Assembly (NCBI GenBank): GCA_900549225.1 | Contig: URNP01000005.1 | Location: 4,532-68,531 of the forward strand | Origin: an uncultured Eubacteriales bacterium | Lineage (GTDB): Bacteria > Bacillota > Clostridia > Christensenellales > CAG-917 | Length of the DNA stretch: 64,000 nt | Reading direction: 5' to 3' | Part shown: piece after piece, positions 5,374 through 62,114 of the stretch | Layout: every line of letters begins with the position of its first letter | Position numbering within the stretch: the first letter of the stretch is position 1 | Notes under the pieces: generated by a model | What the model was told of the DNA's origin: nothing | The model's database searches: none | What the model saw: the letters and a program-made list of their open reading frames with translations, nothing else | Translations under genes and position numbers: made by a program

Positions 5374-5937
5374 ATGAAACGCAGAAATATAGCGATAATA
5401 ATCTTGATGCTGCTGATTACCGTTTTGACACTGGCGGCGTGCAACGACACGACGCAAGGGGACAAACTTGCGTGGGTAGACGCATTGAGCAAAGGCAGTG
5501 AAGCAAAGAGCGTGGAATACGCGCAAAGCGTGACGAAAGGCGAAACGTTGCTTACCTCTTGCGAGCAGAAGTACGCGAAGGGCGAAACGAACTGGACGTA
5601 CGAGAAGACGGAAAAGGCGTTGAGTGAAGACGCATACGCAAGCGACGCGTACACCGAAACGGTAACGAGCGGAAGCGTGGACAATGCCCCGATACTTCAA
5701 CTTGAAAAGAGCATGGTTGAGAGCTTCGAGGAGAAAGGAGAAGAGGAAAAAGAGTACGCAGTGAAGTTGTTTGCGGACAAGGTGAAGACGTTCCTTAAAC
5801 TTAGCGACGCGGAAGCGGCGAAGGTGAGCGGAGTGAAACTTGTGATAACGGTAACAAACGACAGAGTGACGAGCGTAACGCTTGAGTACAAGATTTCCGA
5901 CACGAGCGTACAACAAACCCTGAAGTACGCTTATTGA
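5374..5937 (+). CDS. Putative lipoprotein, function unknown
   Basis: RBS taggagga lies upstream. Signal peptide MKRRNIAIIILMLLITVLTLAAC carries a lipobox L-A-A-C. The gene is 16 nt after the giant protein stop. Confidence 0.7.
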   Translation: MKRRNIAIIILMLLITVLTLAACNDTTQGDKLAWVDALSKGSEAKSVEYAQSVTKGETLLTSCEQKYAKGETNWTYEKTEKALSEDAYASDAYTETVTSGSVDNAPILQLEKSMVESFEEKGEEEKEYAVKLFADKVKTFLKLSDAEAAKVSGVKLVITVTNDRVTSVTLEYKISDTSVQQTLKYAY

Positions 5938-20128: not shown

Positions 20129-21637
20129 TTAGTTGTTTTTGCTCGTCGGCACTACGTTGAGATAACTCTTTCTCCAGGAGTTAGGATTGAACAGAAGCAA
20201 TATAGGTAAGATTTCGAGTCGTCCGAGCAACATATCGAAGGAAAGCACGAGTTTTGCAAAAATCGTGTAACTTGCAAAGTTGCCCTTAGGACCGACCGCG
20301 CCGCTTCCCGGTCCTATGTTGTTGAAGCATGCGATGACGGCAGAGAAGTTGGTTTCAAACGCGTCATACGCTCCGAAATCGTTGTTGCCTATCGAGATGA
20401 GCAGCACGGACACGAAAACGATAAACATATAGATGATGAAGAAACTCTTGACGTTGCGCCTCGTCGTTTCGTCAATGGGAGCGCCGTCCATCTTCGGAGT
20501 GTAAACTGAGCGAGGCGAAAGCGTCTTTTTGACGTTGATTATCGAGGATTTGGAGAGGATAACCACGCGCGACACCTTGAGTCCGCCCGCCGTCGAGCCT
20601 GCACAGCCGCCTATGCACATAACCGAAAGCAGAACTATGCGCGAGAACACGGGCCACTTCGTGTAGTCCGCCGTGCCGAATCCCGACGTACTCATCAGCG
20701 ACGATACGTTGAACGCGGCGTCTTTGAGTGCGGTGGCAAAGTTGTCGTAGGTTTTTGAAACCATAAGATTTGCAACGATAATCGCAACCGCCGAAACGTA
20801 AATGGATACGAACCAGGCAAGTTCCTCGTTGCGTATCGCTTTGAGGAAATGGCCTATCAAAATGAGATAGTAGAGTGTGAAGTTGATTGAGAACAGAAGC
20901 ATAAACACCGTGAGAGTCACTTCGATTCCGACGGAGTTGTAGTACGCAATGCTCGTCGCTTTTACGCCGAATCCGCCCGTCGACGCCGTTGAGAAAGCGT
21001 GGCAGAAACTGTCGAACACGGGCATTTTCAGCGCGCAAAGTATGCCCACCAAAATGAAGGTCATCACGATATAAATTGCGTACAAAATGAGAGAAGTGAA
21101 GCGCAATTTGCTCACGATTTTTCCGAATTGCGGGCCGGGAATTTCCGCTTTTGCAAGAGCGGTTGACATTTTGTCGTTTTTGGGAATGAACACAATTACG
21201 AACACTAAAACGCCCATACCGCCGATAAACTGCGTCAGCGCGCGCCAGAACAGCAGAGATTTGGGAAGCGCCTCGACGTCTGTGAGTATGCTCGAACCCG
21301 TGGTGGTATAGCCCGATATCGTTTCAAAAAGTGCGTCGATATAGTTGGGGATATATCCAGATACGCGGAACGGAATCGCACTCACGAGCGCGACGAAAAT
21401 CCAAAACAGAGCGCACATTGCAAACCCGCTCGTAGAGCGCATATCGCGCTTGTCCTTGGGAGGTCTGACGATTATGCCGACCACGCCGAGAAGCAGACAC
21501 ACGCCGATTGCGATGCCGAAACCGAGTATGGTCGTATCCTCTTGATAGCCTATTGACATAAAGAGAGGAATGGACATCAGCGCTCCGATTATGATGGCGA
21601 TTTCGCCCAAAGCGAATGCAAGCAAACGTAAATTCAT
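20129..21637 (-). CDS. trkH: TrkH/KtrB-family potassium uptake membrane subunit
   Basis: Repeated pore-loop motifs TTGSS, STGGFG, TSGFGT and GCAGSTAGGLKV; polytopic. Confidence 0.9.
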   Translation of the reverse strand: MNLRLLAFALGEIAIIIGALMSIPLFMSIGYQEDTTILGFGIAIGVCLLLGVVGIIVRPPKDKRDMRSTSGFAMCALFWIFVALVSAIPFRVSGYIPNYIDALFETISGYTTTGSSILTDVEALPKSLLFWRALTQFIGGMGVLVFVIVFIPKNDKMSTALAKAEIPGPQFGKIVSKLRFTSLILYAIYIVMTFILVGILCALKMPVFDSFCHAFSTASTGGFGVKATSIAYYNSVGIEVTLTVFMLLFSINFTLYYLILIGHFLKAIRNEELAWFVSIYVSAVAIIVANLMVSKTYDNFATALKDAAFNVSSLMSTSGFGTADYTKWPVFSRIVLLSVMCIGGCAGSTAGGLKVSRVVILSKSSIINVKKTLSPRSVYTPKMDGAPIDETTRRNVKSFFIIYMFIVFVSVLLISIGNNDFGAYDAFETNFSAVIACFNNIGPGSGAVGPKGNFASYTIFAKLVLSFDMLLGRLEILPILLLFNPNSWRKSYLNVVPTSKNN

Positions 21638-25192: not shown

Positions 25193-25292
25193 ATGGAAGT
25201 AGTAGAAATTGCGCGTTAAGTGCCGTACGAACGTGGGGTGTCGGCGGACGAAGAGCGTTGCTCGCGGTGCAATATTCACTCCGGACTTCACA
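25193..25292 (+). promoter_or_regulatory. THF (tetrahydrofolate) class I riboswitch aptamer
   Basis: ggaAGUAGuagaaauuGCGCGUUAAGUG...GGGGUGUCGG...ACGAAG...CGCGGUGcaauauuCACUCCGGacuuc matches the conserved blocks of the THF-I aptamer as I recall it (AGUAG, GCGUUAAGUG, GGGAUGUCG, ACGAAG, CGCGGUG, CAUCCG). It lies between the promoter and folC. Confidence 0.8.
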
Positions 25293-28861: not shown

Positions 28862-29042
28862 TTTTTCCGTTAAACGCCGTTTTGCAACCGTACAAAACGG
28901 CGCTTTCATATCATCGAGCAAATTTTCGGCGATTGCTTTTATTGCGTAGAAAAACGTGTCGAAAATATAATATTGCAACTTTGCATATTGTATGATAAAC
29001 TACACTCAACAGAGTTGCCACATTGCAACTTTCGGAAGAATT

Positions 29043-29537
29043 ATGAGAATAATCATCAAGCAAAAGTATTTCACCGTCGGCGCAAAGTTTGAAATTCAAG
29101 ACAAAGATCGCCAAACCGTGTTCTTTGCCGAGAGACAGTGGGACAGAATTCTGGCCAACGTCGTTTTGTTTTCGCCCGATGGCGCTCCCGTTGCCCGTAT
29201 GCAGGCCGCACTCAAAAAGTTATTTACGTCATGGTTTTCCATCACCGATTCGCGCGGCAACGAAGTTTGCTCCATCCACGAGAAACTTCCGTTTTTCTGC
29301 TTCCACCGTGCCGAAACCGCCAACGGCGCGCTTCATATCAAAATCAAAGCAGGACCTTTCCATATGAAAGCGCACGTTGTCACCGACTCCGGCAAAACTC
29401 TTGCCGTCAAGGCTCGCAAAAAACTTCTTTCCATCCGTGACACCTACGTCATCGACATAGACGAAACCGTCATAAATCCTGCTTACGGAGTGTTGGTGGG
29501 GTTGTGGTATGACCTTGTTTGCCACCCCTCCCGCTAA
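29043..29537 (+). CDS. LURP-one-related / tubby-C-like (YxjI-type) protein
   Basis: MRIIIKQKYFTVGAKFEIQDKDRQ...ARKKLLSIRDTYVIDIDE pattern typical of the family (by eye). Confidence 0.6.
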   Translation: MRIIIKQKYFTVGAKFEIQDKDRQTVFFAERQWDRILANVVLFSPDGAPVARMQAALKKLFTSWFSITDSRGNEVCSIHEKLPFFCFHRAETANGALHIKIKAGPFHMKAHVVTDSGKTLAVKARKKLLSIRDTYVIDIDETVINPAYGVLVGLWYDLVCHPSR

Positions 29538-29640
29538 AACTGCGCCAAACAGCGCTTAACTGCGTCAGAGGCATCCGCCTGTCAACTCATGTACTACTTG
29601 TGCATTAGGGTTGTCATTCGGGTGCCTCTTCCTTGTTCAT
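29538..29640 (+). repeat. Structured intergenic repeat, copy A1 (core hairpin 29568-29628)
   Basis: GAGGCATCCG cctgt CAACTC a TGTAC tactt GTGCA tta GGGTTG tcatt CGGGTGCCTC. It starts directly after the TAA of the upstream gene. Flanks are ttaactgcgtca and ttccttgtt, shared with the other copies. Confidence 0.85.
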
Positions 29641-29864
29641 TTACGCTCAGTAAATTAGGATCGCCGTTCAGGCGGCTCTTTTTTGTTCTTTATCGATTTA
29701 TTGCGTTTTAGTTATATTAACTTGGCGCTGTTTTAGTCCGACACTCATATAATTGCTTATAAAGTATCACTACTCGATAACAATATTTTCATTCATAACC
29801 ATTTAAAATAATGCTTTTAATAATCCTACTTATAATTCTACGTTATTTACTCGTTTTTTCTATC

Positions 29865-29893
29865 TTGAAAACGCTTTTTTCATATGGTATAAT
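29865..29893 (+). promoter_or_regulatory. Promoter of the nucleoside kinase gene
   Basis: TTGAAA (29865-29870), 17-nt spacer, TATAAT (29888-29893). Confidence 0.6.
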
Positions 29894-36472: not shown

Positions 36473-37111
36473 ATGAAAGAATACGACAACGTGCACATTC
36501 TCGACCACCCGCTCATCAGACACAAAGTGGCAATCATCAGAGATAAGAACACCACGACCAAGCAATTCAGAGAGGTCATCGGCGAAATCGCAACTCTTAT
36601 GGCGTTCGAGGCGTTCAAGGACGTGCCCACTCAAACCATAACCGTAGAAACTCCGCTCGAAACGGTTGAACAGACCGTCGTCAAAGAAAACTCAATCGCA
36701 ATCGTGCCCATTCTCCGTGCAGGACTCGGCATGGTTGACGGCGTCCTCACGCTTTTCCCCGCCGCAAAGGTCGGACATATCGGTATGTACCGCAACGAAG
36801 AAACTCTCGAACCTCAAGAGTATTATTGCAAGTTGCCCCAAGGCATCGAGGAGAAAGTCGTTATGCTCGTCGATCCTATGCTCGCAACGGGCGGTAGTGC
36901 CTGCGATGCAATCGCACTTCTCAAAAAGCGCGGTTGCAAACATATCAAATTCCTCGCAATCATCGGCGCGCCCGAAGGCGTTGAAAAAGTCCACTCCGAA
37001 CATCCCGACGTAGAAGTTTACGTCTCGACTCTCGATCGTCAACTCAACGAGAACGGGTATATTTTGCCGGGGTTGGGGGATGCGGGAGATCGCATCTTCG
37101 GCACAAAATAA
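36473..37111 (+). CDS. upp: Uracil phosphoribosyltransferase
   Basis: [38 protein letters not shown] and [16 protein letters not shown]. Confidence 0.92.
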
Positions 37112-37215
37112 GACTGCGCTAAATCGCGCCTAACTTCGTCAGAGGCATCCGTCTGCCAACTCATGTACGCTATGTACATTAGGGTTGTCATTCGGATGCC
37201 TCTTTCTCGTTATCC
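37112..37215 (+). repeat. Structured intergenic repeat, copy A2 (core 37142-37202)
   Basis: GAGGCATCCG tctgc CAACTC a TGTAC gctat GTACA tta GGGTTG tcatt CGGATGCCTC. It begins right after the upp TAA. Confidence 0.85.
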
Positions 37216-37244
37216 ATCGATTTATCGCAGTCTTATAGCATGAA

Positions 37245-37335
37245 AAGCAGCGAATAACTTCGTCAACGCCCGTCCGCTCCAAAATCACGTACTTCTTGTA
37301 CGTTGGGTTTTGTTTCGGACGGGCGTTTCCTTTGA
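37245..37335 (+). repeat. Structured intergenic repeat, copy B1 (core 37266-37326)
   Basis: ACGCCCGTCCG ctc CAAAATC ACGTAC ttctt GTACGT tg GGTTTTG ttt CGGACGGGCGT. The 5' flank is aataacttcgtca and the 3' flank is ttcctttg. Confidence 0.85.
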
Positions 37336-37465
37336 GCGAAGATATAATCAAACGTTTGCATTTGCTCTTAAAACAAGGCCGATTGTGTCTTCTTTTTCTT
37401 CGTTCTTTACAAAATGCGCTCCAAATGGTATAATTGATTATAATAATACTTATATAAGGTTACAA

Positions 37466-41508: not shown

Positions 41509-42303
41509 ATGATAAACGGCAAAACCATCGTCATCACCGGCTCAAACAGCGGTATAGGTCTTGAAACGCTCAAACTGCTTGCAAACGGCAGCAACAAGAT
41601 TTTGGCGGTTGACTTGCGCACGGACAGAATCGAGGCGCTCAATTTGAAAAACGTATTCCCGATGGTGTGCGACGTGTCCACCAAAGAGAACGTCGATTCC
41701 ATTTTTGCGGCCGCAACCGAAAAACTCGGCTCGATTGACATCTTCTTTGCAAACGCAGGTTTTCCGTACTACGAAACGATGGACTACGTCAACTGGGAGC
41801 GCATCGAGGACATCTTCAAAGTCAACGTGTATTCCCCCATCTACACCTATCAAAAATACGTCGAATATCTCGGCGGCAAGCAAGGTCAAATGGCAATCAC
41901 GGTTTCTGCAATCGGAAAACTCGCAATGCCCGGCTACACGCTCTACAGCGCGAGCAAATTTGCAATGCAAGGCTTCCAACAAGGTCTTCGCTACGAACTT
42001 CCTAGCAACGTATCTCTCACTTGCCTCTATCCGATAGCAACCGACACGGGCTTCTTCAAGAAGGCAGTCGAAGGTCAAGAGGGCAAAGTCATTCGCGAGC
42101 GTCCGTTCCCCGTCCAAAAACCGCAACACGTGGCAAAGTGCATGGTCAGAGGCTTGGAGCATAAGCGCAAATTCGTCAATCCGTCCAAACTCTTCACGTT
42201 TGCACAATTTCTGTTTGCGATCTGCCCGCCGATCAAGTGGGTGTATTTGAAACTCGAAAAGAACAAACTCGACCGTTTTGAAGCCCAAAAAGCAAACAAA
42301 TAA
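41509..42303 (+). CDS. Short-chain dehydrogenase/reductase (SDR) family oxidoreductase
   Basis: RBS aaggaaggag. TGSNSGIGLE cofactor motif and YSASKFAMQG catalytic YxxxK. Confidence 0.85.
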   Translation: MINGKTIVITGSNSGIGLETLKLLANGSNKILAVDLRTDRIEALNLKNVFPMVCDVSTKENVDSIFAAATEKLGSIDIFFANAGFPYYETMDYVNWERIEDIFKVNVYSPIYTYQKYVEYLGGKQGQMAITVSAIGKLAMPGYTLYSASKFAMQGFQQGLRYELPSNVSLTCLYPIATDTGFFKKAVEGQEGKVIRERPFPVQKPQHVAKCMVRGLEHKRKFVNPSKLFTFAQFLFAICPPIKWVYLKLEKNKLDRFEAQKANK

Positions 42304-42304
42304 T

Positions 42305-42334
42305 CGTTTTGAGGCTCAAAAAGCCACAAAATAG
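42305..42334 (+). repeat. Imperfect (24/30) tandem copy of the last 30 nt of the SDR gene
   Basis: cgttttgaagcccaaaaagcaaacaaataa (42274-42303) versus cgttttgaggctcaaaaagccacaaaatag (42305-42334). Confidence 0.85.
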
Positions 42335-42420
42335 CGATTAATTGCGTCAACGCCCGTCCGCTCCAAAATCACGTACTACTTGTACGTTGGGTTTTGTTCC
42401 AGTCGGGTGTTTCCTTGTTC
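42335..42420 (+). repeat. Structured intergenic repeat, copy B2 (core 42350-42410; 3' arm degenerate)
   Basis: ACGCCCGTCCG ctc CAAAATC ACGTAC tactt GTACGT tg GGTTTTG ttc CAGTCGGGTGT. Flanks are attaattgcgtca and ttccttgtt. Confidence 0.85.
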
Positions 42421-42481
42421 TTCATCTATTTTGCACCTTTTTACAAAATCCGCAAAATAACGCAATAAAACTCAAAAACAA

Positions 42482-42522
42482 AAGTCCCGACTTTGATATG
42501 GAGTCGGGACTTGCCGTTTTTT
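42482..42522 (+). terminator. Rho-independent terminator downstream of SDR gene and repeat B2
   Basis: aagtcccgact / agtcgggactt 11-bp stem followed by gccgtttttt. Confidence 0.8.
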
Positions 42523-44255: not shown

Positions 44256-44287
44256 AAAAAACCTTCCGATTCCGGAAGGATTTTTTT
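44254..44287. terminator. Bidirectional terminator between convergent MATE and M28 genes
   Basis: A8 - ccttccg attc cggaagg - T7. Confidence 0.85.
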
Positions 44288-46660: not shown

Positions 46661-47338
46661 TTATCTTTCCGTCATAGATTCCGCAGTCATCATAAGGTCG
46701 TAGAGCGGTTGTATCATTTCAAATTGATCGCACAGCGTTGATGCGAGTTTGTCGGAGAGGAGAAGGTCGATATCCGTCGAGTTTGCGATAAAGCAGATAT
46801 CTTTCTTCTCAAGCCAGCGGCTCAGATCCGCGGGATAATCGGAGTAGTGCGGTTTTTTATACGTTTCGCCCACGAGCGAAAATACGGATTGATTTTCAAA
46901 GCACTCTTTTGCTTTTTGAAACACGGGCGAGTTTGACAGAATCAAGTTGCGCAGACTTGCCATACTTTTTGCGTCTGCCATATAGTATCCGCACCCGTAG
47001 CGGAAGTTGTACGGCGAGATTTCAAAAAAGTAGCCGGGAAGACCGCACGCGGCGTTCGTTCCGCGCATAAACGTGAGCCACATATGGTCGCGATAAAGGC
47101 TCGTCTTGTCCTTTGCGAAGCGCAAGTCCTTATACAGCCTTGACACGATGCTTTTGGGCTCGGTTATCATCTGCTCGTCGATTTTGAGCATGCGGGGAGT
47201 CATCTCGACTGCGAGATCGTGAAAAGGAATAGAGAGGAACTGTTTGAAGTCCTCTTTATGTTCCTGATACCAGAGTTTTGAGTTGTATTTATGGTTGAAA
47301 TACAAAAAGTCGAGCGACCTTTGCGAAAACGTAGTCAT
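46661..47338 (-). CDS. DUF2461 (TIGR02453-type) family protein
   Basis: FYFNHKYNSKLWYQEHKEDF... and SRLYKDLRFAKDKTSLYRDHMWLTF pattern. Confidence 0.7.
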   Translation of the reverse strand: MTTFSQRSLDFLYFNHKYNSKLWYQEHKEDFKQFLSIPFHDLAVEMTPRMLKIDEQMITEPKSIVSRLYKDLRFAKDKTSLYRDHMWLTFMRGTNAACGLPGYFFEISPYNFRYGCGYYMADAKSMASLRNLILSNSPVFQKAKECFENQSVFSLVGETYKKPHYSDYPADLSRWLEKKDICFIANSTDIDLLLSDKLASTLCDQFEMIQPLYDLMMTAESMTER

Positions 47339-47940
47339 TTGTTTTCAAAGAGTGCGACGAGCGTATTTTGCACGATATTGCACATCGCGTCGTAGTCGAT
47401 ATATGTGTGGTGGTCGTACACGAACTCGTGCGAGAAGGATTGCACGATATCCATAGCGAAGTGGATGCGTTCGGTGAGGTTTTCCTTTTTCACGCCGAGG
47501 TCGGCAAACTTATTTGCGATAGCAAGCGTAATTTCGTCCTCAAGGGAGATGAACTTGTTGTTGACTGCCTCGTCGCTGTGCGACATAGAGTGAAGAGCCT
47601 CGTGAATATTCGCATATTTTTTGTGGATTTCGATAGCGCCGTCAAGAACGTGTTTTATCGTATCTTCAAAATTCACCGGAGCGGTGAGGCCGTTTATCAT
47701 ATCGAGCACGGGGGCAAACGCCTCTTTGACGTAGATTTCCAAAACGTCGAGAAGGATATCTCTCTTATCCTTGAAATATCCGTAAACGATACCCGTCGAA
47801 ACGCCCGCGCGTTTTGCGATTTCCACGGTATTGGTATTGTAATATCCGACCTGTGAAAAGAGTTCAAATCCCGCTTGAACTATTCTGTTTTTCTTTTCGA
47901 TTGATCTTTCTTGTTTGGGTTCTCTGACGTCCTGTGCCAT
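47335..47940 (-). CDS. TetR/AcrR family transcriptional regulator
   Basis: N-terminal HTH KKNRIVQAGFELFSQVGYYNTNTVEIAKRAGVSTGIVYGYFKDK. ATGA overlap with the downstream DUF2461 gene. Confidence 0.88.
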   Translation of the reverse strand: MAQDVREPKQERSIEKKNRIVQAGFELFSQVGYYNTNTVEIAKRAGVSTGIVYGYFKDKRDILLDVLEIYVKEAFAPVLDMINGLTAPVNFEDTIKHVLDGAIEIHKKYANIHEALHSMSHSDEAVNNKFISLEDEITLAIANKFADLGVKKENLTERIHFAMDIVQSFSHEFVYDHHTYIDYDAMCNIVQNTLVALFENK

Positions 47941-47964
47941 ATATTCCTTTCGAGCGTGCTATTT

Positions 47965-48056
47965 GGCGTGATACTTCGTCATCGCACCTTGCCTGTCAAC
48001 TCATTTACGCCTAGTAAATTAGGGTTGCCACCCAAGGCACGCTTCCTTGTCTGACG
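47965..48056 (+). repeat. Structured intergenic repeat, copy C (core 47983-48041)
   Basis: CGCACCTTG cctgt CAACTC a TTTAC gccta GTAAA tta GGGTTG ccacc CAAGGCACG. Flanks are gatacttcgtca and cttccttgt. Confidence 0.8.
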
Positions 48057-48197
48057 CTCAAATATCTCGCTCGAAACATTCGTTCAAAATGTTTTTTGCG
48101 GAATACTTGCGCCGTCATCGCTCATTTGCTCGCCTTTTATAAGTCAATTATTTGATGAATTATGCCTTAATCAAACTGACTTTATATTGATATTTAC

Positions 48198-52451: not shown

Positions 52452-52538
52452 GCGGACATGGCGGAATTGGCAGACGCGCAAGATTCAGGTTCTTGTGAGC
52501 ACTAGTTCATGCAGGTTCAAGTCCTGTTGTCCGCACCA
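52452..52538 (+). tRNA. tRNA-Leu(CAG): tRNA-Leu, anticodon CAG, type II (long variable arm), CCA encoded
   Basis: Acceptor GCGGACA/TGTCCGC, anticodon stem CAAGA/TCTTG with loop TTCAGGT, T-loop GGTTCAAGTCC, discriminator A plus CCA. Confidence 0.92.
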
Positions 52539-52543
52539 GGATG

Positions 52544-52586
52544 AACCCAGTTGAACCATAAAGGTTTGACTGGGTTTTCCTTTTTC
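52544..52586 (+). terminator. Long hairpin terminator after the tRNA, at the chromosome/mobile-element junction
   Basis: aacccagttgaacc ataaa ggtttgactgggtt (14 bp including two G.U pairs), followed by ttcctttttc. Confidence 0.7.
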
Positions 52587-52600
52587 TAATATTTGTAATA

Positions 52601-54139
52601 TTATACATACATTTCAAATCTAATGGTTTTCTTTTCAAGTGGAAGATTTGACTTGCGTTTCATAACGACATCTTTTGAAAATTTGTAAAATAAAAAGGCC
52701 CGACGCCTTTCAGCATCAGGTCTTATCAAGTCTGTATAATTGAAGTGAATTTCTATTCGGTCTTTGTAAAGAATAACGTCTTTGATAAGCAATTCTATCA
52801 TTAGACGAGGTGTTTTTCTGATTGCTTGTTGCAAATAGTCAACAATGTCTTTTTTATCAATAGGAATTGTTTCTTTCGCTTTTTCCAAAGCCAGTTTAGT
52901 TTCAAATTCTGTTTTTTGTTGCTCGAGTTCTTCCAATCTTTTTGCAGTGGAAGCACTCACGATTCCTTTTTCCATACACGCAATAAGATTTGATAAAGCT
53001 TTTTCTGTGTCATGCAATTGACCTTCTATAATATTGATTACAGACGCATCTGCCATTTTTTGTTGATGAGCGTTTAGTATTAGAGTTGCAAGTTTATCTA
53101 TTAATCTTGGATTCGCAAGAGTTTCATAAGTTGCCTCGACAACCAACTGTTCTAGTAGTTCTTTCCTAATTGGAGTATTGTCGCATTTTTTATCGACTTT
53201 TCGCCCTGAACATTTGTAATATCTTACAACCTTGCCGGTTCTTGAAGTCCCACTTTCCGAACTTACAGTCTTTCCACAATAGCCACAATGCACTTTGTTT
53301 CTTAAAAGATAATGCACATCTGTGTGTTTGCCGTTTTTATTTGATTGTGCTTTAGCTCTACATATATCAAATACCTGCTCGTTAACGATAGGCGGGTAAA
53401 TGTTATCGAATACTTGGTCTCCAAATCTGACAATTCCAATATATTTTTCGTTTTTCAGTAGATTATAGAAAGCAGTTCGTGTAAATGGTTTTCCGTGACA
53501 AAGCACTCCTTCGTTGTTTAGGTCGTCAAGTATGTCTTTTATGAGCCTACCACTTGCGTATTCTTCAAACATTCGTCTTACGATTACAGCCTCGTCTTCT
53601 TTGATGCGCACTCTTCGGCCTTCGGCTTTCGTTCCGTATGCCTCGTATCCGAAAATAGGTACACCGCCTGTAAATTGCCCTTTGATTCGACTTTCGTTCA
53701 ATCCGCGCTTTACCTTTTGTGAAAGCTCGGCAGAGTAGTATTCAGCCATGCCGACGTACATATTTTCAAGAATAATGCCGTCAAGGTTTTGAGAGCCGTC
53801 TATATTTCGCGACGTTCGTTGTGTTGCAGAAATGACAATTTTACCTGTCTTTTGCAATCTGTATTTGTTAATTGCTTGTTCAATAGAATTCCTTCCGAAA
53901 CGGTCTAATGCATATACAAGGCAAATATCCCATTCTTTTGTCTTTTCACTGTCCGAAAGCATTTGTTGGAATTCTTTTCTCAAATCGTTCGTTCCTGTCA
54001 TTGCGCGGTCTATATACTCGTGTACGACGATAAGTTCATTGTTTTTTGCAAATTCATAGCAAACTCGAAGCTGACCTTCGATAGATTGTTCAGTCTGTCG
54101 TTCGCTTGAATATCTGGCGTAAATGACGCACTTTTTCAT
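52601..54139 (-). CDS. Large serine recombinase (integrase)
   Basis: RBS aaggag. N-terminal resolvase domain VIYARYSSERQ, recombinase domain, zinc ribbon CGYCGK...YYKCSGRKVDKKC, C-terminal coiled coil. Confidence 0.92.
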   Translation of the reverse strand: MKKCVIYARYSSERQTEQSIEGQLRVCYEFAKNNELIVVHEYIDRAMTGTNDLRKEFQQMLSDSEKTKEWDICLVYALDRFGRNSIEQAINKYRLQKTGKIVISATQRTSRNIDGSQNLDGIILENMYVGMAEYYSAELSQKVKRGLNESRIKGQFTGGVPIFGYEAYGTKAEGRRVRIKEDEAVIVRRMFEEYASGRLIKDILDDLNNEGVLCHGKPFTRTAFYNLLKNEKYIGIVRFGDQVFDNIYPPIVNEQVFDICRAKAQSNKNGKHTDVHYLLRNKVHCGYCGKTVSSESGTSRTGKVVRYYKCSGRKVDKKCDNTPIRKELLEQLVVEATYETLANPRLIDKLATLILNAHQQKMADASVINIIEGQLHDTEKALSNLIACMEKGIVSASTAKRLEELEQQKTEFETKLALEKAKETIPIDKKDIVDYLQQAIRKTPRLMIELLIKDVILYKDRIEIHFNYTDLIRPDAERRRAFLFYKFSKDVVMKRKSNLPLEKKTIRFEMYV

Positions 54140-54250
54140 ACTGTTGTCTCCTTTTTGATGTGTTGTAATTCGAGTATAGGGTGTTCAATTCCCGTTGAGT
54201 AGGACATTGAGCGAGCCGTTTTGTGCCTAATTTGAAATTTAGTAAAACGG

Positions 54251-54303
54251 TGTTGAAAGCCTGAATTAACATTGTTGAAACGATGTTGAAACATAGTTGG
54301 AAC
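54251..54303. repeat. Four phased direct repeats TGTTGAAA (TTTCAAC on the recombinase strand) upstream of the recombinase gene
   Basis: tgttgaaa occurs at 54251, 54273 and 54284, with a variant agttggaa at 54296. Spacings are 22, 11 and 12 nt. Confidence 0.7.
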
Positions 54304-54661
54304 ACTCCTTTGTCGAGTTGTCTTTTTCTTTCGACACCTCGAAAAAATCGGGAAAGCATCGCATCGTCAAGGGAATAGGGAAAATATTGCGTTGGTATAT
54401 TTGCTTTAATTATCCGCAATATTTTACCCCTTGAAGAAAGATGCTTTTCTGATAAACTCCCACCCTACTCAAAAAGAGAAAGAAAAGACATATCACATTG
54501 ATGTTTCATCATTGTTTTGTTACGGATTTGTAGCGATTTCGTCACAGTTTTGTCATACATATTTTTGTGTTTCAAAGACGACCTTTGTTGCTTTATAATG
54601 TTCTTCTTTTTTGCGGCCACAAGGATTATCGTTAAGTTAGAAAAAACAACGGAGGTGTGAT

Positions 54662-54859
54662 ATGCGGGAAATCATACTTGAAGATAATCCGAGTAAACGA
54701 CAAATATTTGTAGATGATAACAAACCGGATTTCTCTTATTTATCTAATAAAGATATAGATTTATATATATCCTTATTAGAAATAGAAATGTATGAGCATT
54801 TCAAGAATCGTCGCAAAAGAAAGCCGAGAGATCAACCTGAAAATAAAAAAATCTCCTAA
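54662..54859 (+). CDS. Hypothetical 65-aa protein
   Basis: Strong RBS ggaggtg. Upstream promoter TTCAAA-17-TATAAT. No homology recognised. Confidence 0.45.
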   Translation: MREIILEDNPSKRQIFVDDNKPDFSYLSNKDIDLYISLLEIEMYEHFKNRRKRKPRDQPENKKIS

Positions 54860-54915
54860 TGTGTACCATAAATGTCGCATAACGATTAATGTCAAAAATT
54901 TCTTATGAAAACCCG

Positions 54916-54943
54916 TTGACTTTTGTTTTTGAATGACTATAAT
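54916..54943 (+). promoter_or_regulatory. Promoter of the LexA-like/polymerase operon
   Basis: TTGACT (54916-54921), 16-nt spacer, TATAAT (54938-54943). Confidence 0.65.
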
Positions 54944-54992
54944 GAAAATTACAAAACGCAATAAATGTTGCAGATTGTAAAAGGGGTATACA

Positions 54993-55604
54993 ATGCAAGT
55001 AAAAAACAAAGAAACGATAGATAAGATTTTGAACATACTCAACGAGAGTTTGCGTGAGAACAACGGCACTCCGTCTATATACGAAATTGCCGACGCGATA
55101 AACGTAAATCCGTCCACGGTCAGCAGATATATCAACTATTTGGTGTCCGAAGGCATAATCGAGAGAAAAGGCAAGCATTGCAATCTCACTACATCGAAGT
55201 TTGCCAAAACGATGTCCAACGTAACGGCTTGCCCGATTGTCGGCGACATTGCTTGCGGCTCTCCGATACTTGCGGAAGAAAATATAGAATCGTATGTATC
55301 AATCTCAACCGAGTTTTTCGGTCCCGGAGAGTACTTCATACTTAAAGCGAAAGGCGAAAGTATGATAAATGCAGGCGTAAATGACGGAGATTTGGTTGTT
55401 ATACGAAAGCAAGATACTGCAAACGAAGGACAAATAGTGGTTGCACTCACGGATGAGGGTGAGGCTACGTTAAAGCGATATTTTTTGGATAAAAAGCACA
55501 AACTAATAAGACTGCATCCCGAAAATGATGCACTTCAAGATATGTTCTATAAGAACATTCAAATTCAAGGCATAGCCGTAAAAGTAATAAAGGACTTGTT
55601 ATAA
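54993..55604 (+). CDS. LexA-like S24 repressor
   Basis: N-terminal winged helix (IYEIADAINVNPSTVSRYINYLVSEGIIERKG). S24 Ser/Lys dyad context KGESMINAGVNDGDLVVI ... ATLKRY. Confidence 0.85.
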   Translation: MQVKNKETIDKILNILNESLRENNGTPSIYEIADAINVNPSTVSRYINYLVSEGIIERKGKHCNLTTSKFAKTMSNVTACPIVGDIACGSPILAEENIESYVSISTEFFGPGEYFILKAKGESMINAGVNDGDLVVIRKQDTANEGQIVVALTDEGEATLKRYFLDKKHKLIRLHPENDALQDMFYKNIQIQGIAVKVIKDLL

Positions 55605-55613
55605 AGGAGCAAT

Positions 55614-56876
55614 ATGGAAAAACAACGGACTTATCTTTGCATAGATATGAAATCATTCTTCGCATCTGTAGAATGTGCGGAACGTGGGTTAAGTCCGTTT
55701 GAAACAAACCTTGTCGTTGCAGACGAATCTCGCGGAAAAGGTGCTATAACTTTGGCAATTACTCCAAAGATGAAAGCACTCGGAGTCAGAAACCGTTGCA
55801 GACTGTTTGAAATACCTAAAAACATAGATTACATTATTGCGCTCCCGCACATGAGTTTGTATATCAAATACTGCGCAGACATTTTTGATATATATCTCGA
55901 TTATTTCTCACCGGACGATATACATCAATACTCAATCGACGAGGCTTTTATAGACGTTACGGACTACTTGTCTATTTACAAACTCGAACCAAAGCAACTT
56001 GCAAAGAAAATTATAAACGAGATAGCCGAGCGCACGCATATTCCTGCGACTTGCGGTATAGGCACAAACCTGTATCTTGCAAAGATTGCACTCGACATCA
56101 CGGCAAAACATTGCAAAGACCATATTGGAATGCTTGACGAGCAAACATTCAAAGAAACTTTGTGGGAGCATAGACCGATAACCGACTTTTGGAATATCGC
56201 AAACGGTATTGCCACAAGGCTTGCCCGATATGGAATTCATGATATGAAAGGCGTAGCAACAGCCCCGGAAGATCTCCTTTATAGGAATTTCGGTAAGAAC
56301 GCTAAATTGCTAATCGACCACGCAAACGGCAAGGAAAGTTGTACGATTGCGGACATCAAGAACTACAAGGGTAAGTCAAAGTCTATCTCAAATTCTCAAA
56401 TCTTGTTCAGCGACTACGCATACGATAAAGCACATATCGTCATACAAGAGATGGCTTTGAGTGGTTGTCAGCGACTTCTAAAAGAACATTTGATTGCAAG
56501 CCACGTCGGTATTTCCGTCGGATATTCAAAAGATGCTGCTCCGGCTACGGGCGGAACGCTCAAAATGGCAAACAGCACCAATCTCTATTCAATGGTTAAG
56601 GAATACGTTGATAGAATTTTTGAAGATACCACACATCAAGACGTTCCTATCCGCAGACTCGCTATATGTTTTAGCGGACTCGTGGACGAATCTGCCGAGG
56701 GCTATGATTTGTTTACTGATTTGGACGCATTGCAAAAAGAGCGCAATGTCGAAAAAGCAGTGTTGGAAATCAAAGAAAAGTTTGGTAAGAACGCAATGTT
56801 GCGAGGTTTCGACTTGCAAGAAGGCGCAACGCAAAAAGAACGCAACAAACTGATTGGAGGACACAATGGCGGTTAA
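55614..56876 (+). CDS. Y-family (DinB/UmuC/UvrX-like) translesion DNA polymerase
   Basis: YLCIDMKSFFASVE, SIDEAFIDVT and thumb/little-finger-like C-terminal half. RBS aaggag. Confidence 0.9.
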   Translation: MEKQRTYLCIDMKSFFASVECAERGLSPFETNLVVADESRGKGAITLAITPKMKALGVRNRCRLFEIPKNIDYIIALPHMSLYIKYCADIFDIYLDYFSPDDIHQYSIDEAFIDVTDYLSIYKLEPKQLAKKIINEIAERTHIPATCGIGTNLYLAKIALDITAKHCKDHIGMLDEQTFKETLWEHRPITDFWNIANGIATRLARYGIHDMKGVATAPEDLLYRNFGKNAKLLIDHANGKESCTIADIKNYKGKSKSISNSQILFSDYAYDKAHIVIQEMALSGCQRLLKEHLIASHVGISVGYSKDAAPATGGTLKMANSTNLYSMVKEYVDRIFEDTTHQDVPIRRLAICFSGLVDESAEGYDLFTDLDALQKERNVEKAVLEIKEKFGKNAMLRGFDLQEGATQKERNKLIGGHNGG

Positions 56877-57201
56877 AAACAATGACGATGTGAATCGTGC
56901 GGCTCAGTTCCTTCCATTCGATGCACTAAAAGGCTTGTCCGAAGAATTGCAAAGCAGAATCGAAAAGCGCACTCGCGTTCCTAAGCACGAGTTTTCCGAC
57001 GAAAAGAAGGAAGAATTGTCCAAAACTCTTGTGAGAGTGGACAAAGGAACGGTTGTGAGAATCAATTTCTATCTCAACGGACATTACATTGATATAGAAG
57101 GAACGGTTGCGAAAAACAACGTGGTCTATCATTATTTGACGATAGGTCAAAAGAAGATATTTTATGACGATATCTACCAAATCGATATAGTTTCCGAATA
57201 A
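56866..57201 (+). CDS. YolD-like protein (UmuD-equivalent accessory of Gram-positive Y-polymerases)
   Basis: GGAGGA RBS, then ATG 56866. AAQFLPFDALKGLSE motif. It follows the polymerase gene as in uvrX-yolD-type pairs. Confidence 0.7.
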   Translation: MAVKNNDDVNRAAQFLPFDALKGLSEELQSRIEKRTRVPKHEFSDEKKEELSKTLVRVDKGTVVRINFYLNGHYIDIEGTVAKNNVVYHYLTIGQKKIFYDDIYQIDIVSE

Positions 57202-57334
57202 CTGCCCCGGTTTATAAGGAAATTATATATAGGGTGCGCAAGATAGTTTTACTGCGACGCGGGAGTGCCTAACCCCGTCAATGCAGTAGGCTAAATACAA
57301 GTCTATGTGCGCTATGGGCAAAGGAGGTGCTTTT

Positions 57335-57520
57335 ATGGATAATGCTATTATCACGCAAGACGCTATTCCGATACGAAAACTGTGTCCCGAATGCAGGAAG
57401 TATTTTGTAGCGAGCGTTAAAAGTAACGGCGAAATCGTGGGGAGATGCTCACATTGCCACGCCAAGTACTTTGAGCAGAAAAAGAACAACGTGCGACTTA
57501 TCAAAGTTGTGCAAAGATAA
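57335..57520 (+). CDS. Small zinc-ribbon protein
   Basis: RBS aaaggaggtg. CPEC...CSHC (CxxC-N18-CxxC). Confidence 0.6.
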   Translation: MDNAIITQDAIPIRKLCPECRKYFVASVKSNGEIVGRCSHCHAKYFEQKKNNVRLIKVVQR

Positions 57521-57633
57521 TCACTAAAAAGGAAAACTACATACGTCTATATAGGCAAATCAAGGTCGGGCTGTGACAGCGCCCAAGATAAATCCTCGTT
57601 CCCCGCTTTTATAGATAAGATTCGATAGGAGAC

Positions 57634-57697
57634 GATATCCCCAACCCGAATGCGACGTGTTGAAAAAGGTCGCAAACCGAGTGGGGATATTTTTATT
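57634..57697 (+). terminator. Long interrupted hairpin plus T-run between the Zn-ribbon gene and the sigma-like gene
   Basis: atatcccc (57635-42) / ggggatat (57683-90), inner gcgac/gtcgc, followed by ttttatt. Confidence 0.55.
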
Positions 57698-57741
57698 CTC
57701 CGCTACGGAAAATCTATTTATAAGAACTAGGAGAAATTTAT

Positions 57742-58041
57742 ATGAAAACATTTACAGCAATCAGAGAAGATCTGAAAAATATAAGATATTATTATGCGCG
57801 TCGTGACGAAATGGCGCAAAAGGCAAAAATTCTCGGCGAATGTACTGTGTCAAAAACCGCGGAAGAATATAACGAAGTGGTTCGTCAAGCACCGCCAAAA
57901 CTTTACGAATTGTACTATTGTATGTACATTGAAAACAATACGCAGGAATCGGCAGCAGAGAAGTACGGATATGCCAGAGAGCATGTCACAAGACTTAACA
58001 AGCAATTGTTACGTTTTATTCAAAATCATCTTATAGCATAA
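57742..58041 (+). CDS. Sigma-70 region-4-like HTH regulator (Tn916 orf7-like by architecture)
   Basis: LYELYYCMYIENNTQESAAEKYGYAREHVTRLNKQLLRF is a region-4-type HTH. RBS taggaga. Confidence 0.6.
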   Translation: MKTFTAIREDLKNIRYYYARRDEMAQKAKILGECTVSKTAEEYNEVVRQAPPKLYELYYCMYIENNTQESAAEKYGYAREHVTRLNKQLLRFIQNHLIA

Positions 58042-58052
58042 GGAGAAAGACA

Positions 58053-58301
58053 ATGGAAGAATTTATCCCGGATTTTATATTGCAGGCAGACAACGTGTAT
58101 AGAACGAGAAACTATATCGTAAAGCAAAGATTGGAATATATTGAAAACACGACGGAAGATAACGTCATAATAAGCTATGACACTTTCTACAAACGCACAA
58201 GGCTTAGAGATAAGCAGTATATGATTATGTACGGTGATAAACATCACCCGAACGGTAAGCGTATGCCGAGTACAACTTATACAAGAGTGTACATCGATTA
58301 A
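58053..58301 (+). CDS. Hypothetical 82-aa protein
   Basis: RBS aaggaga. It starts 11 nt after the sigma-like gene. No motif recognised. Confidence 0.45.
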   Translation: MEEFIPDFILQADNVYRTRNYIVKQRLEYIENTTEDNVIISYDTFYKRTRLRDKQYMIMYGDKHHPNGKRMPSTTYTRVYID

Positions 58302-58316
58302 CTTAATTTCAGTTTT

Positions 58317-58346
58317 TATTGGCTCTCAATTTTTTGGGAGCCAATG
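58317..58346. terminator. Bidirectional hairpin between convergent genes
   Basis: ttggctc(t)ca atttttt tg(g)gagccaa. Confidence 0.6.
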
Positions 58347-58349
58347 TAT

Positions 58350-59888
58350 TTATTCTATAATTAGTTCTCCTGTAAAAATCTCTGGAGAATGTTTGGAATT
58401 AATTTCATATTTTATAGATTTTGGTGCTTTTTTGAAAAACAACCGAGATGGGAAGAACATCTTTGTATGTTGTTTTAGGTATTTAATATTAAAACATAAG
58501 ACATCTTCATAGTCATTCTCTCTTATATCATAACAGAAAATACTCGAGATTTCATTGTTATAATCTCGTTGCAATTCTTTTATATGTTTAGCGTAATCTG
58601 CGCCATAAAATGATGATATAGACGAGGTTTTGGGCATAAATTGATAGTAACTATACGTATCAATATCTGGTGTTTTTTCATCCATAAATAAACTATATAG
58701 TAAATCTTCAGATACTATTGTTTCCAAAATACTATTGTCAGGAATGGGAATTTCATTGGGCATAACGATTTTATTTTTTTCAATATAGAGTTTTATATCT
58801 ATATCTTCATCGAATGTTCTGCCATCATTGCTTACGACTAATGAAGTATATATGTATTTATCTATGGTTCCAAAGAAACGATACATATCATTGTAATTGT
58901 TAATTAGAGTGGACAATTCCGTTAACATGCGAAATTTATCTTTCTCATTTTTATGTCCCATTAAACCACTGTCATTCTGTCCTAATATAAGGATGCGTTT
59001 TTTTCGTAAGTTACCTAAATTCCAAAACTCATCATCCAGAGAAATACCATGTTCTGAACAAAATGCTTGAACAACGTTCTTGTTTTTAGCAAGTATTTCT
59101 ACTTTGTCAAGCTTAAGTGTATTTGTTTCATAATCTCTATTTATTTTCTCAAGATGTTCTTTGGTGAAAATACCCGAATATGGTGCTAAATTCTCCATAT
59201 TCGTTTCCGAATCGATATGTATTTCTTTGATTCTATTTATCAAAGTTATTATTTCATTTTGAATCTCTAAAACTAAAGAACCACAAAAATTAAACTGTTG
59301 CAGTTTTGCTTTGTTGTCAGGGAAAAATGATATTGCCAAATTTGGAGCATTTTTTGATACAATACTTTGGGAGCTTACTGAAATCTCGTTCCGAAAATAA
59401 AGAGATAGTGCATTTTGAAATTTTGTCCTTAAATCCTCTTTAGTGTTTGCAATATCAAATAGGGCTTTGTCCTTATATTTTTCCATAAATTGTTTAACTT
59501 TAGCATATTGTTCTAGATTAATATCGGAAGGTTTAACATCCCTATCAATTAAATATAAAAATACTTGCTTTTTACTAGAAAGCATATTTTTAATTTCGTC
59601 TTCTGTCCCTGAATCAGAATTATCAGTCGGTGTACCGAAACGAGTTCCAAATAGTGCAACACAAAAATCGCAATCATTAATAAACTGCTTATTAAGTATA
59701 TTTTGTGGAGTATCACCGGATTGTGGATAGCTATCAGTTGACCAGTGTTTAAGAACAACAGTAATATGATTTGTTTCGCCAATAGATGAATTAAACGAAT
59801 TGACCGCATCATTAATAGCATCTTTTAAATCCACGACATCCCCGGGACATGAAAGTAATAGGCTGTATTCGATTTTTGGTTTTGGCAT
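58350..59888 (-). CDS. Orphan 512-aa protein: DUF4062/TIR-like N-terminal domain plus ~370-aa unknown C-terminal region; candidate defence effector
   Basis: N-terminal sequence YSLLLSCPGDVVDLKDAI...CDFCVALFGTRFGTPTDNSDSGTEDEIKNMLSSKKQVFLYL fits the DUF4062 pattern as I recall it. The gene is AT-rich and on the opposite strand to all its neighbours. Confidence 0.7.
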   Translation of the reverse strand: MPKPKIEYSLLLSCPGDVVDLKDAINDAVNSFNSSIGETNHITVVLKHWSTDSYPQSGDTPQNILNKQFINDCDFCVALFGTRFGTPTDNSDSGTEDEIKNMLSSKKQVFLYLIDRDVKPSDINLEQYAKVKQFMEKYKDKALFDIANTKEDLRTKFQNALSLYFRNEISVSSQSIVSKNAPNLAISFFPDNKAKLQQFNFCGSLVLEIQNEIITLINRIKEIHIDSETNMENLAPYSGIFTKEHLEKINRDYETNTLKLDKVEILAKNKNVVQAFCSEHGISLDDEFWNLGNLRKKRILILGQNDSGLMGHKNEKDKFRMLTELSTLINNYNDMYRFFGTIDKYIYTSLVVSNDGRTFDEDIDIKLYIEKNKIVMPNEIPIPDNSILETIVSEDLLYSLFMDEKTPDIDTYSYYQFMPKTSSISSFYGADYAKHIKELQRDYNNEISSIFCYDIRENDYEDVLCFNIKYLKQHTKMFFPSRLFFKKAPKSIKYEINSKHSPEIFTGELIIE

Positions 59889-60334
59889 AAATTATCTCCT
59901 ATAGAATTGATAAACAAAATAATTATAACTCATATAGCCGATTTAGTAAAGCTATAAGAAATTGGAGTGGTTACATCGTTGTTTCAATTGGATTTTATAG
60001 TGTCATTTTTACATTTCGTTACTGTTTGAATTAGGCTCGAAAGTTGTCCTTTTTGCTTACATTGGTGTTCTGGTTTTTGTGAAAAATAAGCCCTATACTG
60101 ATGACGTAATCAAGAGCGAGAGCAAGCGAACGACTGTTGATTGCGGACTGAATTCAGATAAAGGTGGCCACCTCCCGAAACAAGTCGCAAGAAACGGAAT
60201 GTTTCACAAACAAGACTTTATGATTACAAAACTACAACTTAATATACCAATTTCGCGCTTAGCTAACGGCAACACGGGCAAAGACAAATCACTATGCTGC
60301 ACTATCGGCACAACGGGTAAAGGAGAATTTTTCA

Positions 60335-60598
60335 ATGGCAAACAAATATGGCGAACGCAGATGGAGCGTGCCTTCCAAGAGAGCGAAGGACTACGCGTCG
60401 GAGCGTAAGAACAAGGTGCACGAACATGGTGCAAAAGAAGGCAAGCAACTCACGGATTATGAGGCAGGACTTCGCTCCGGATACTTGCAAGCACAATCGG
60501 ATCACGCAGGTCTGTACAAGTACAAAAAGGCTCTCGGTGAAGGCAAATCCAAATCCGAGGCAAGAACAATCTCTCGTACTATCGGGAAGAAAAAATAA
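60335..60598 (+). CDS. Hypothetical small basic protein (87 aa)
   Basis: RBS aaaggaga. Lys/Arg-rich. First gene of a tightly packed plus-strand operon. Confidence 0.5.
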   Translation: MANKYGERRWSVPSKRAKDYASERKNKVHEHGAKEGKQLTDYEAGLRSGYLQAQSDHAGLYKYKKALGEGKSKSEARTISRTIGKKK

Positions 60599-60612
60599 GG
60601 AGGAAATAGGCA

Positions 60613-60954: not shown

Positions 60955-61018
60955 ATAAGCGTCACGGAATACGGCTTGAAATACAGCCGTATTTCTTTCA
61001 AAAACATGGAGGATTTAT

Positions 61019-62101: not shown

Positions 62102-62114
62102 TTAGAGGTGGAGC

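Follow-up and report, generated by a model that had tools for sequence, protein, structure and literature searches.

A candidate palindromic repeat family at gene ends in gut Christensenella-like Clostridia

A 64,000-nucleotide (nt) stretch of contig URNP01000005.1, from an uncultured Eubacteriales bacterium of the Christensenellales (CAG-917), contains five copies of an intergenic repeat that proves to be a ~127-nt imperfect palindrome, with the stop codon of the upstream gene inside its outer stem; the whole stretch is referred to here as the window. On balance, we think it probable that these copies represent an undescribed palindromic repeat family of gut Christensenella-like Clostridia, similar in kind to REP/BIME, ERIC, BOX and SPRITE repeats, that is remodelled at the DNA level and probably transcribed as a 3'-terminal hairpin. 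Literature searches found no published description of this repeat family. A search of the whole window against Rfam 15 at gathering thresholds returned a tetrahydrofolate (THF) riboswitch and tRNA only, with no match for the repeat, and a search of region 29500-29720 up to E = 10 gave chance-level matches only (11-14.5 bits). An earlier, sequence-only reading of the window had recognized no known Rfam family in the repeat, and indeed none appears at gathering or permissive thresholds.

Architecture and spread of the repeat unit

The sequence-only reading had proposed five cores of ~60 nt, all on the plus strand, at 29568-29628 (A1), 37142-37202 (A2), 37266-37326 (B1), 42350-42410 (B2) and 47983-48041 (C), and a sequence check finds all five at these positions and on this strand. 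A degenerate core pattern matches five times in the window against 0.05 expected, a number that none of 100 shuffles reached. Similarly, the covariance model R1, built from the five window copies, recovers just five full copies in the 64 kb, at 84-100 bits, as compared to 13-28 bits for their reverse strands, and RNAalifold run on the five copies gives 23 pairs, 12 of which have changed on both sides. The flanks that had been described (aacTtCGTCA and TTCCTTGT), the covarying apical stem and a partial second unit after A1 are all present as well. The unit itself, however, is about twice as long as first thought. Conservation extends past the stretch first described by ~20 nt on either side, where a 5' module ([TAA]AAnnGCGCTATTnAGCG) pairs with a 3' module (CATCTnAATATCGCnnTTTTA). 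Because the two modules are reverse-complementary copy by copy (for example, ATTGAG with CTCAAT and AAACAG with CTGTTT), the whole unit amounts to one long hairpin. Minimum-energy folds of whole units range from -55 to -88 kcal/mol; for the A2 unit the RNA fold reaches -59.3 kcal/mol (z = -11.8) and the opposite strand, folded as DNA, -37.3 kcal/mol (z = -9.6).

Within this hairpin the outer stem, P0, is locus-specific and is well paired in 110 of 156 full-size copies. A box helix of 7 base pairs (bp), seen as GAATAAC/GTTCTTC, GAATAGC/GCTCTTC, GCCTAAC/GTTATGC, GACTGAC/GTCATTC and other versions, covaries, yet one pyrimidine-pyrimidine mismatch is always retained in it. Further components are a conserved 7x7 internal loop (T-N-CGTCA opposite TTTC-N-N-G), a stem, P1, whose sequence differs by subfamily, an inner stem (CAACUC/GGGUUG) that is conserved and contains a 2-nt bulge as well as an invariant T·G pair, and an apex composed of a 6-bp stem and a variable 5-nt loop. 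The unit derives its polarity from the features that are conserved on one arm only, namely the internal loop, a GCG opposite CATC, the box mismatch, the T·G pair and the bulge. Discrete subfamilies, each combining a box type with an outer core stem, are common to several species.

A single scan of a species-representative genome collection with the core pattern returned at least 116 stretches, treated as 8-kb loci and cited below by L numbers; all family-wide counts rest on the matches listed. Carriers are almost all gut metagenome-assembled genomes labelled as Christensenella sp., Clostridiales or Clostridia, or Firmicutes CAG:238 and CAG:475, or else are evidently mislabelled bins. Among the matches listed, plus the window, R1 detects ~176 non-overlapping units in ~26 assemblies, and the complete 1.65-Mb chromosome CP091723.1 carries at least 17 units. 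The window sequence also forms part of assembly GCA_902476315.1 (contig CABSCX010000004.1). Two Proteobacteria loci have no R1 match and are thus chance matches to the pattern. A phage origin was considered and rejected, since of seven pattern matches in viral contigs R1 confirmed just one. Head-to-tail arrays are common, with spacings that cluster at 111-132 nt and a period of ~125 nt, and different species have kept the element, its stems compensated, at orthologous sites such as those in the group L043/L045/L063/L091/L098. With many dispersed intergenic copies and dyad symmetry, the family has the generic properties of a small interspersed palindromic repeat. In fact, the proposal of a REP/MITE-like repeat (MITE, miniature inverted-repeat transposable element) made from the window alone has fared well, as these are multi-copy, multi-species palindromes with subfamilies, tandem arrays and copy numbers that change between strains.

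In a subset of units, all outside the window, an extra hairpin module of ~47 nt (GACGCGATTGACGCAAGCGTAACAATCGCTATTCCGTCAC...) sits between the 5' flank and the outer core stem (L007, at 5827-5866, L016, L076, L008 and L106), so the family is modular, rather like BOX. Other short repeats lie beside the units in related genomes (L076, L009, L081, L090, L105, L079 and L055), among them GGGTGGGACACCCACACCCGAAA-like sequences and AATTAATAATGAATAATTAATAATT runs, neither of which occurs in the window.

Position and orientation relative to genes

We scored a cluster of units as gene-associated when an open reading frame (ORF) of at least 70 codons on the same strand ended within a range from 45 nt before the model start to 10 nt after it. 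Of 120 testable clusters, 100 have such an ORF, and in 71 of these it ends 15-19 nt from the model start, so that its stop codon lies at the very foot of the hairpin. The stops at the 100 clusters are TAA (84), TGA (12) and TAG (4), and in a minority of clusters the stop codon falls within the 5' module. Opposite-strand ORFs ending near the 3' end of the unit were found in 23 of 97 cases, with no distance peak. The upstream genes are unrelated, syntenic housekeeping genes, encoding a LOR-domain protein, upp, a short-chain dehydrogenase, TrkH and others; uracil permease, patatin and polA genes are further examples among the flanks.

Orientation follows the gene at L028, where two convergent genes each carry their own co-oriented unit, ~220 nt apart. 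On CP091723.1 the units at 240-736 kb are on the minus strand and those at 968-1568 kb on the plus strand, a layout that fits gene-strand bias, such that gene and replichore are not separated on this chromosome.

Element-free orthologues illustrate what an occupied gene end has gained. The native stop position is kept exactly at L073 (compared to L009 and L068), L036 (compared to L105) and L047 (compared to L024); at L047 the TAA stop has given way to a TGA that is part of ATTGAGCG in the module, which places the junction within the stop codon. At L088 (compared to L030) and L113 (compared to the window TrkH gene) the filled gene is shorter and ends on a stop supplied by the element. The window TrkH gene (20129-21637, minus strand) is element-free and ends in ...SWRKSYLNVVPTSKNN, and its L113 orthologue, at ~85% DNA identity, ends in ...SWKKA directly on the element; either insertion shortened the L113 protein or the window lineage lost the stop codon. 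In the strains of the window species that were read, no window site was found without the element, and arrays vary in unit number.

Two simple accounts of this placement were rejected. That the element inserts at random close to gene ends and then provides the stop fits L088, L113 and the in-module stops, but as a general rule it is ruled out by the exact native stops at L073, L036 and L047 and by the single position shared by 71 of the 100 clusters. Insertion into the loop of a pre-existing terminator abutting the stop also fails, as the terminators of the element-free L068, L105 and L024 are 27-65 nt off or there is none nearby.

Covariation and remodelling at the DNA level

A reading that deserves serious consideration, although we do not favor it, is that of a cis-acting structured RNA, i.e. 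a device of the 3' untranslated region (UTR) read by the terminating ribosome, an RNA-binding protein or an RNase, whose repeat nature would be secondary. Such a device would suit the near-absolute co-orientation with the upstream gene, the fixed distance to the stop, the retention of orthologous sites across species and the very strong covariation. It would equally suit the unpaired nucleotides, T·G pair, bulge and pyrimidine-pyrimidine mismatch that are conserved within covarying helices. A precedent may exist in E. coli, where many REPs lie less than 15 nt from a stop codon and reportedly cause ribosomes to stall (Liang et al. 2015, as relayed by PMC12306157).

The pattern of base changes does not resemble that of a typical RNA family. 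Covariation was measured on alignment A3, which comprises the 110 full units chosen for P0 pairing from the 156 full-size copies. Changes on both sides occur in 42 of 44 consensus pairs, and 94.8% of cells are paired, as compared to 67.8% after shuffling and ~40% when the partner is slid by 1-3 columns. Of the 4,830 paired cells, 4,509 are Watson-Crick, 68 are G·U and 88 are A·C, and one-sided changes are very rare next to two-sided ones. A selected RNA should tolerate G·U and purge A·C, and the family shows neither; therefore, the argument from G·U pairs for an RNA strand fails. That argument had been drawn from two positions at which A1 differs from A2, T29574 with G29622 and T29592 with G29602. 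Both exist, yet the first is a recombination junction, because G29622 lies in an arm that belongs to the next array unit in sister strains. The broader proposal of an RNA-level element thus loses its G·U basis, although co-orientation and stop anchoring still point to a link with RNA or translation.

The arms of the palindrome also copy the neighboring gene, which counts against an RNA device as well. RNAduplex and local-alignment measures of arm extension gave spurious distant pairs and an uninformative control, and an exact mirrored 6-mer test was used instead. Of 84 unambiguous clusters, 53 have in the 3' flank, at the mirrored position, an exact reverse complement of the 6-mer formed by the stop codon plus 3 nt, and in 28 of these 53 the match runs at least 2 nt further into the last sense codons, where ~6% would be expected by chance. 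Units at TGA stops correspondingly read TCA at their far end, and at L097, L043, L020, L084, L013, L066 and L113 the arms are complementary to 10-25 nt of contiguous coding sequence. Since the coding side is constrained by the protein, the 3' arm must be the one copied from coding sequence. Other units bear larger rearrangements. At L050 (4077-4162) the flanks and the outer core stem (CAACCCTAATGTAC...GTACATGAGTTG) enclose inner and apical stems in the inverted orientation, so that the model matches both strands, and at L008 a 36-nt apex and the 5' module are missing while the orthologous L073 site holds a full unit. Template switching during replication makes and repairs stems in single events, by which compensatory changes can arise at the DNA level, and its products at quasi-palindromes include arm homogenization, stem extension and spacer inversion (PMC8794818). 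The changes in arms, apices and unit number seen here are the known products of template switching and of unequal recombination between tandem repeats.

These arms also bear on an ordinary MITE, moved by a TA-duplicating DDE transposase (IS630/Tc1-like) and retained where harmless just past stops, an explanation that we hold to be very improbable. Most units do end TAA...TTA, which is compatible with TA duplications around an inverted repeat, the homology of A1 and A2 runs exactly from TAA to TTA, and the size, AT-rich ends and subfamilies resemble those of ERIC, Correia, RUP and BOX (PMC3049150). A TA duplication cannot, however, give the TCA far ends of units at TGA stops or complementarity into coding sequence, and is compatible with the TAA cases only. 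The outer arms are not constant among copies but reflect the local coding sequence, ~83% of clusters are found at a stop codon although many TA sites between genes stand empty, and no transposase was seen in the flanks. Orientation, which is free in a MITE, is almost never reversed, with 100 of 120 clusters co-oriented with and abutting an upstream ORF. The plain MITE that the sequence-only reading had set out as an outcome, with random orientation, a cognate transposase, and terminal inverted repeats with target duplications, is accordingly not what we see: orientation is non-random, the flanks and the scanned window ORFs showed no cognate transposase, and a fixed inverted repeat with a direct target duplication does not describe the ends.

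Whole units are gained and lost between strains regardless of the gene, and the upstream genes are functionally unrelated, two further points against an RNA device. At the upp locus strains of the window species have two, three or four units in 124-nt steps, and at the A1 locus one (as in the window), two or three units precede the same truncated last unit in 128-nt steps; recombinant units are visible among strains. The flagged site that holds A1 (29535-29711) is itself a recombinational deletion product of a two-unit array, ~1.5 units long, pieced together from unit 1 (its 5' part), the core of the next unit (its 3' part), the truncated unit (its apex and 3' half) and a 3' module at 29679-29711. 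Its 5' module (29535-29554, plus strand), the 5' arm of the outer stem, is homologous to that of A2 from TAA onward and opens with the TAA stop (29535-29537) of the LOR-domain gene (28992-29537). In sister strains this module pairs with CATCTGTTTGGCACAGTTTTA, which has been lost from the window. The rest of unit A1 (29555-29638, plus strand; R1 99.7 bits, supported by folding) consists of the 5' flank CTTAACTGCGTCA, the core hairpin 29568-29628 and the 3' flank TTCCTTGTTC. The second-unit remnant (29639-29711, plus strand), recognized from a 3' flank motif match at 29679-29695 and from sister strains, comprises an apex ATTTACGCTCAGTAAATTAGG (29639-29659), the 3' arm of the outer core stem ATCGCCGTTCAGGCGGCTC (29660-29678), and the 3' flank and 3' module TTTTTTGTTCTTTATCGATTTATTGCGTTTTAG (29679-29711). 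What had been taken for a weak GC hairpin plus T6 after A1 is in fact the 3' half of the outer stem of this truncated second unit, with the 3' module following it.

The other window units, all on the plus strand, are less rearranged. Unit A2 (37109-37235; R1 97.6 bits, supported by folding) is a complete 127-nt hairpin, TAAGACTGCG...CGCAGTCTTA, that opens with the TAA stop of upp (36473-37111). Unit B1 (37236-37334; R1 95.5 bits and sequence), with a 5' module, flank, core 37266-37326 and 3' flank but no 3' module, stands in tandem with A2 at a 124-nt period. Unit B2 (42315-42444; R1 92.5 bits and sequence) has a 5' module at 42315-42336, a flank, the core 42350-42410, a 3' flank and a 3' module at 42423-42444, and begins 12 nt past the stop (42301-42303) of a gene that Pfam assigns to the short-chain dehydrogenases. 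Unit C (47948-48076; R1 84.2 bits, sequence and neighboring genes) is complete, TTTCGAGCG...CGCTCGAAA, and is followed by the shortened start of a further unit, GGAATACTTGCGCCGTCATCGC (48100-48121, from sequence), at which a full second copy starts in strain L134.

Unit C does not lie 3' of a plus-strand gene, a correction to the earlier reading. It occupies the divergent intergenic region between a minus-strand TetR gene (47335-47940) and the feoA/feoB operon, 8 nt from the TetR start codon, and is thus outside any co-oriented 3' UTR, which together with the lack of an Rfam match speaks against an RNA device. Unit C is kept in all strains read, with a tandem duplication (136 nt) in strain L134.

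The units leave traces in assemblies and annotations. Two Logan contigs (L144 and L145, ending at about window position 42345) end 351 nt upstream of the MatE gene, at the B2 unit, and scaffolds L129 and L135 have N runs inside the A1 and C arrays; hence the repeats break or gap assemblies. Gene calling in L117 placed three minus-strand ORFs of 50-58 amino acids on units.

Known repeat systems and the ends of transcripts

In sequence and defining features, the family matches none of the known repeats REP/BIME, BOX/RUP/SPRITE, ERIC/Correia, attC or MIRU, though each offers partial likenesses. Like REP/BIME elements, the units are multi-copy extragenic palindromes lying mostly just 3' of coding regions and plausibly transcribed (PMC3733652, PMC12306157). 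REPs, however, are simple hairpins of 20-40 nt, usually in inverted dimers, whereas the repeat described here has several helices in a hairpin of 127 nt, forms head-to-tail arrays and takes the stop codon into its stem, and no RAYT was seen in the flanks. Similarly, BOX, RUP and SPRITE of Streptococcus pneumoniae are Firmicute repeats of less than 200 nt that form stem-loops when transcribed, BOX being modular with a variable number of internal modules and SPRITE being terminator-like and enriched near gene 3' ends (PMC3049150). They bear no sequence relation to the repeat, and their inverted-repeat ends are fixed, in contrast to the locus-specific arms seen here. ERIC (IRU) and Correia elements are imperfect palindromes of ~100-150 nt, co-transcribed with their neighbors, for which orientation-dependent effects on mRNA processing are reported (summarised in PMC3049150). 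They are MITEs with defined inverted repeats and TA duplications, found in both orientations, with neither stop anchoring nor whole-unit tandem arrays. MIRUs are tandem units of 40-100 nt that keep one orientation to the flanking genes, overlap their stop codons and vary in copy number between strains. Unlike the repeat, these mycobacterial elements are not palindromic, and within operons they carry small ORFs through which the translation of successive genes is coupled.

Integron attC sites (for example the ~125-nt repeats of Vibrio cholerae) are recognized by structure over sequence, with unpaired or extrahelical bases defining the strand, and are always 3' of a gene, in one orientation and often overlapping the stop codon. 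The repeat is of similar size and likewise conserves structure while its sequence varies. This likeness belongs to a wider proposal, which we judge unlikely, that the unit is a folded single-stranded DNA site, either REP-like and served by an HUH/Y1 transposase (RAYT, IS200/IS605-type) or attC-like and served by a shape-reading tyrosine recombinase. Hairpin shape, mismatches and bulges are constant while the stems vary, units are orientation-specific, discrete subfamilies are common to several species, and one subfamily has GCCTAAC at the place of attC R''. Moreover, an unpaired N-CGTCA (with variants TGTCA and CGGCA) stands directly 5' of the core stem in nearly all units, and this tag at the hairpin foot recalls the CGTC-REPs (PMC3733652). 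CGTC-REPs are nevertheless defined by an 8-9-bp stem, a 4-5-nt loop and a CCA tail, occur mostly as head-to-head dimers and have not been reported in Firmicutes (PMC3733652), whereas the core stem here has 10-11 bp and encloses two more helices, the 3' tail reads TTTCTTG and the arrays run head to tail. As for the attC boxes, R'' (RYYYAAC) is present in 17 of 110 units, R' (GTTRRRY) in none, and thus both together in none; the flanks are syntenic housekeeping genes rather than cassettes, and tandem units have no ORFs between them. An IS200/IS605 derivation is opposed by the single palindrome in place of two distinct ends, by a left neighbor that is TAA, TGA, TAG or in-module rather than a fixed tetra- or pentanucleotide, and by the convergent genes of L028, whose units lie on opposite strands, so that orientation follows the gene and not one replication strand.

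A mobilizing enzyme did not emerge either. In ~0.9 Mb of flanks (the 116 loci of 8 kb), all-against-all comparison of 615 ORFs gave cross-species orthologues only, with no multi-copy or transposase-like family, and neither a Y1 transposase/RAYT nor an integrase was found among the flanks or the scanned window ORFs. The sole recombinase of the window is of the serine type and belongs to a tRNA-linked island. This island opens with an 84-nt tRNA gene with a long variable arm (52452-52535, plus strand), followed by a large serine recombinase gene (52601-54139, minus strand), from which point the GC content falls to 0.37-0.39. The low-GC part encodes an S24 LexA-like repressor together with a UmuC-like Y-family polymerase (54993-56876), as well as a DUF4062 protein. 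The region 52452-64000 looks like a mobile element integrated at a tRNA gene, and it carries no copy of the repeat. Elsewhere in the window, the THF riboswitch aptamer returned by Rfam lies at 25196-25289 (plus strand; 55 bits against a gathering threshold of 36), upstream of plus-strand genes including FolB/HPPK.

The repeats are found where transcription units end; the next gene is convergent in half of the cases, or it lies several hundred nt off. Downstream of the A1 array, at 29865-29893, and of the A2-B1 array, at 37406-37434, there are strong promoter-like sites. No canonical terminator intervenes at either place, and the element-free orthologue L068 has a canonical terminator instead. 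A run of at least four T closes 49 of 110 units. A terminator scan places a canonical terminator 3' of B2, at 42482-42522. A canonical bidirectional terminator (44262-44279; CCTTCCGATTCCGGAAGG, with T-runs on both strands) stands 7 nt past the MatE stop, so ordinary stop-proximal terminators coexist with the repeat family in this genome.

For a DNA-remodelled repeat that is probably transcribed, we envisage the following. The palindrome would be kept paired and extended mainly at the DNA level, with template switching copying the 5' flank, coding sequence included, into the 3' arm, and arrays would change through unequal recombination. Co-transcribed with the upstream gene, the unit would form a very stable 3'-terminal hairpin. 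It may stop transcription in the roughly half of units whose P0 closes on a T-run, and in every unit it should block 3' exonucleases. Because the stop codon and the next ~18 nt lie inside the stem, the hairpin could also slow translation termination, an effect reported for those E. coli REPs that lie less than 15 nt from a stop (Liang et al. 2015, as relayed by PMC12306157). The conserved mismatches, bulges and loops suggest a putative protein that reads the folded strand, either as RNA or as single-stranded DNA.

Several points weigh against this account. T-runs at just 49 of 110 units, and the canonical terminator that B2 has in addition, argue against transcription termination as a role common to all units, and the effects on termination, stabilization and translation are all ones that we infer. 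Because A3 was selected for P0 pairing, its figures for P0 are inflated and are upper bounds, the core helices being unaffected, and the ORFs behind the stop-codon counts came from crude calling, not from a gene finder. Copy C, which is not downstream of a co-oriented gene, is an exception to stop-codon anchoring. Moreover, template switching leaves unexplained both the conserved module 5-9 nt from the stop in ~70% of clusters and how the core reaches new genes, and a purely DNA palindrome would need another cause for its strict orientation. A bolder reading, which we entertain only with considerable doubt, is a self-propagating hairpin that needs no dedicated transposase. Its conserved core would move from one gene end to another by template switching or copy choice, with the outer stem rebuilt from the local stop-codon region, and it would persist because a hairpin that sequesters the stop would couple the formation of transcript 3' ends, or transcript stability, to translation termination. 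Otherwise, the repeat would be the substrate of a hypothetical structure-specific recombinase that targets stops.

In practical terms, the repeats break short-read assemblies and attract spurious small ORF calls, and their strain-variable unit number, akin to that of variable-number tandem repeats, makes the arrays ready-made strain markers. Massive covariation (42 of 44 pairs) that lacks a G·U signature, together with arms that copy coding sequence, calls for caution when RNAs are sought through covariation, and the family offers a test bed for template-switch mutagenesis. No known insertion mechanism accounts for the combination of precise stop anchoring, gene orientation and a preserved native stop. 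If the description given here holds, a single repeat family stands at a considerable portion of the gene ends in an abundant, uncultured group of human-gut Clostridia.

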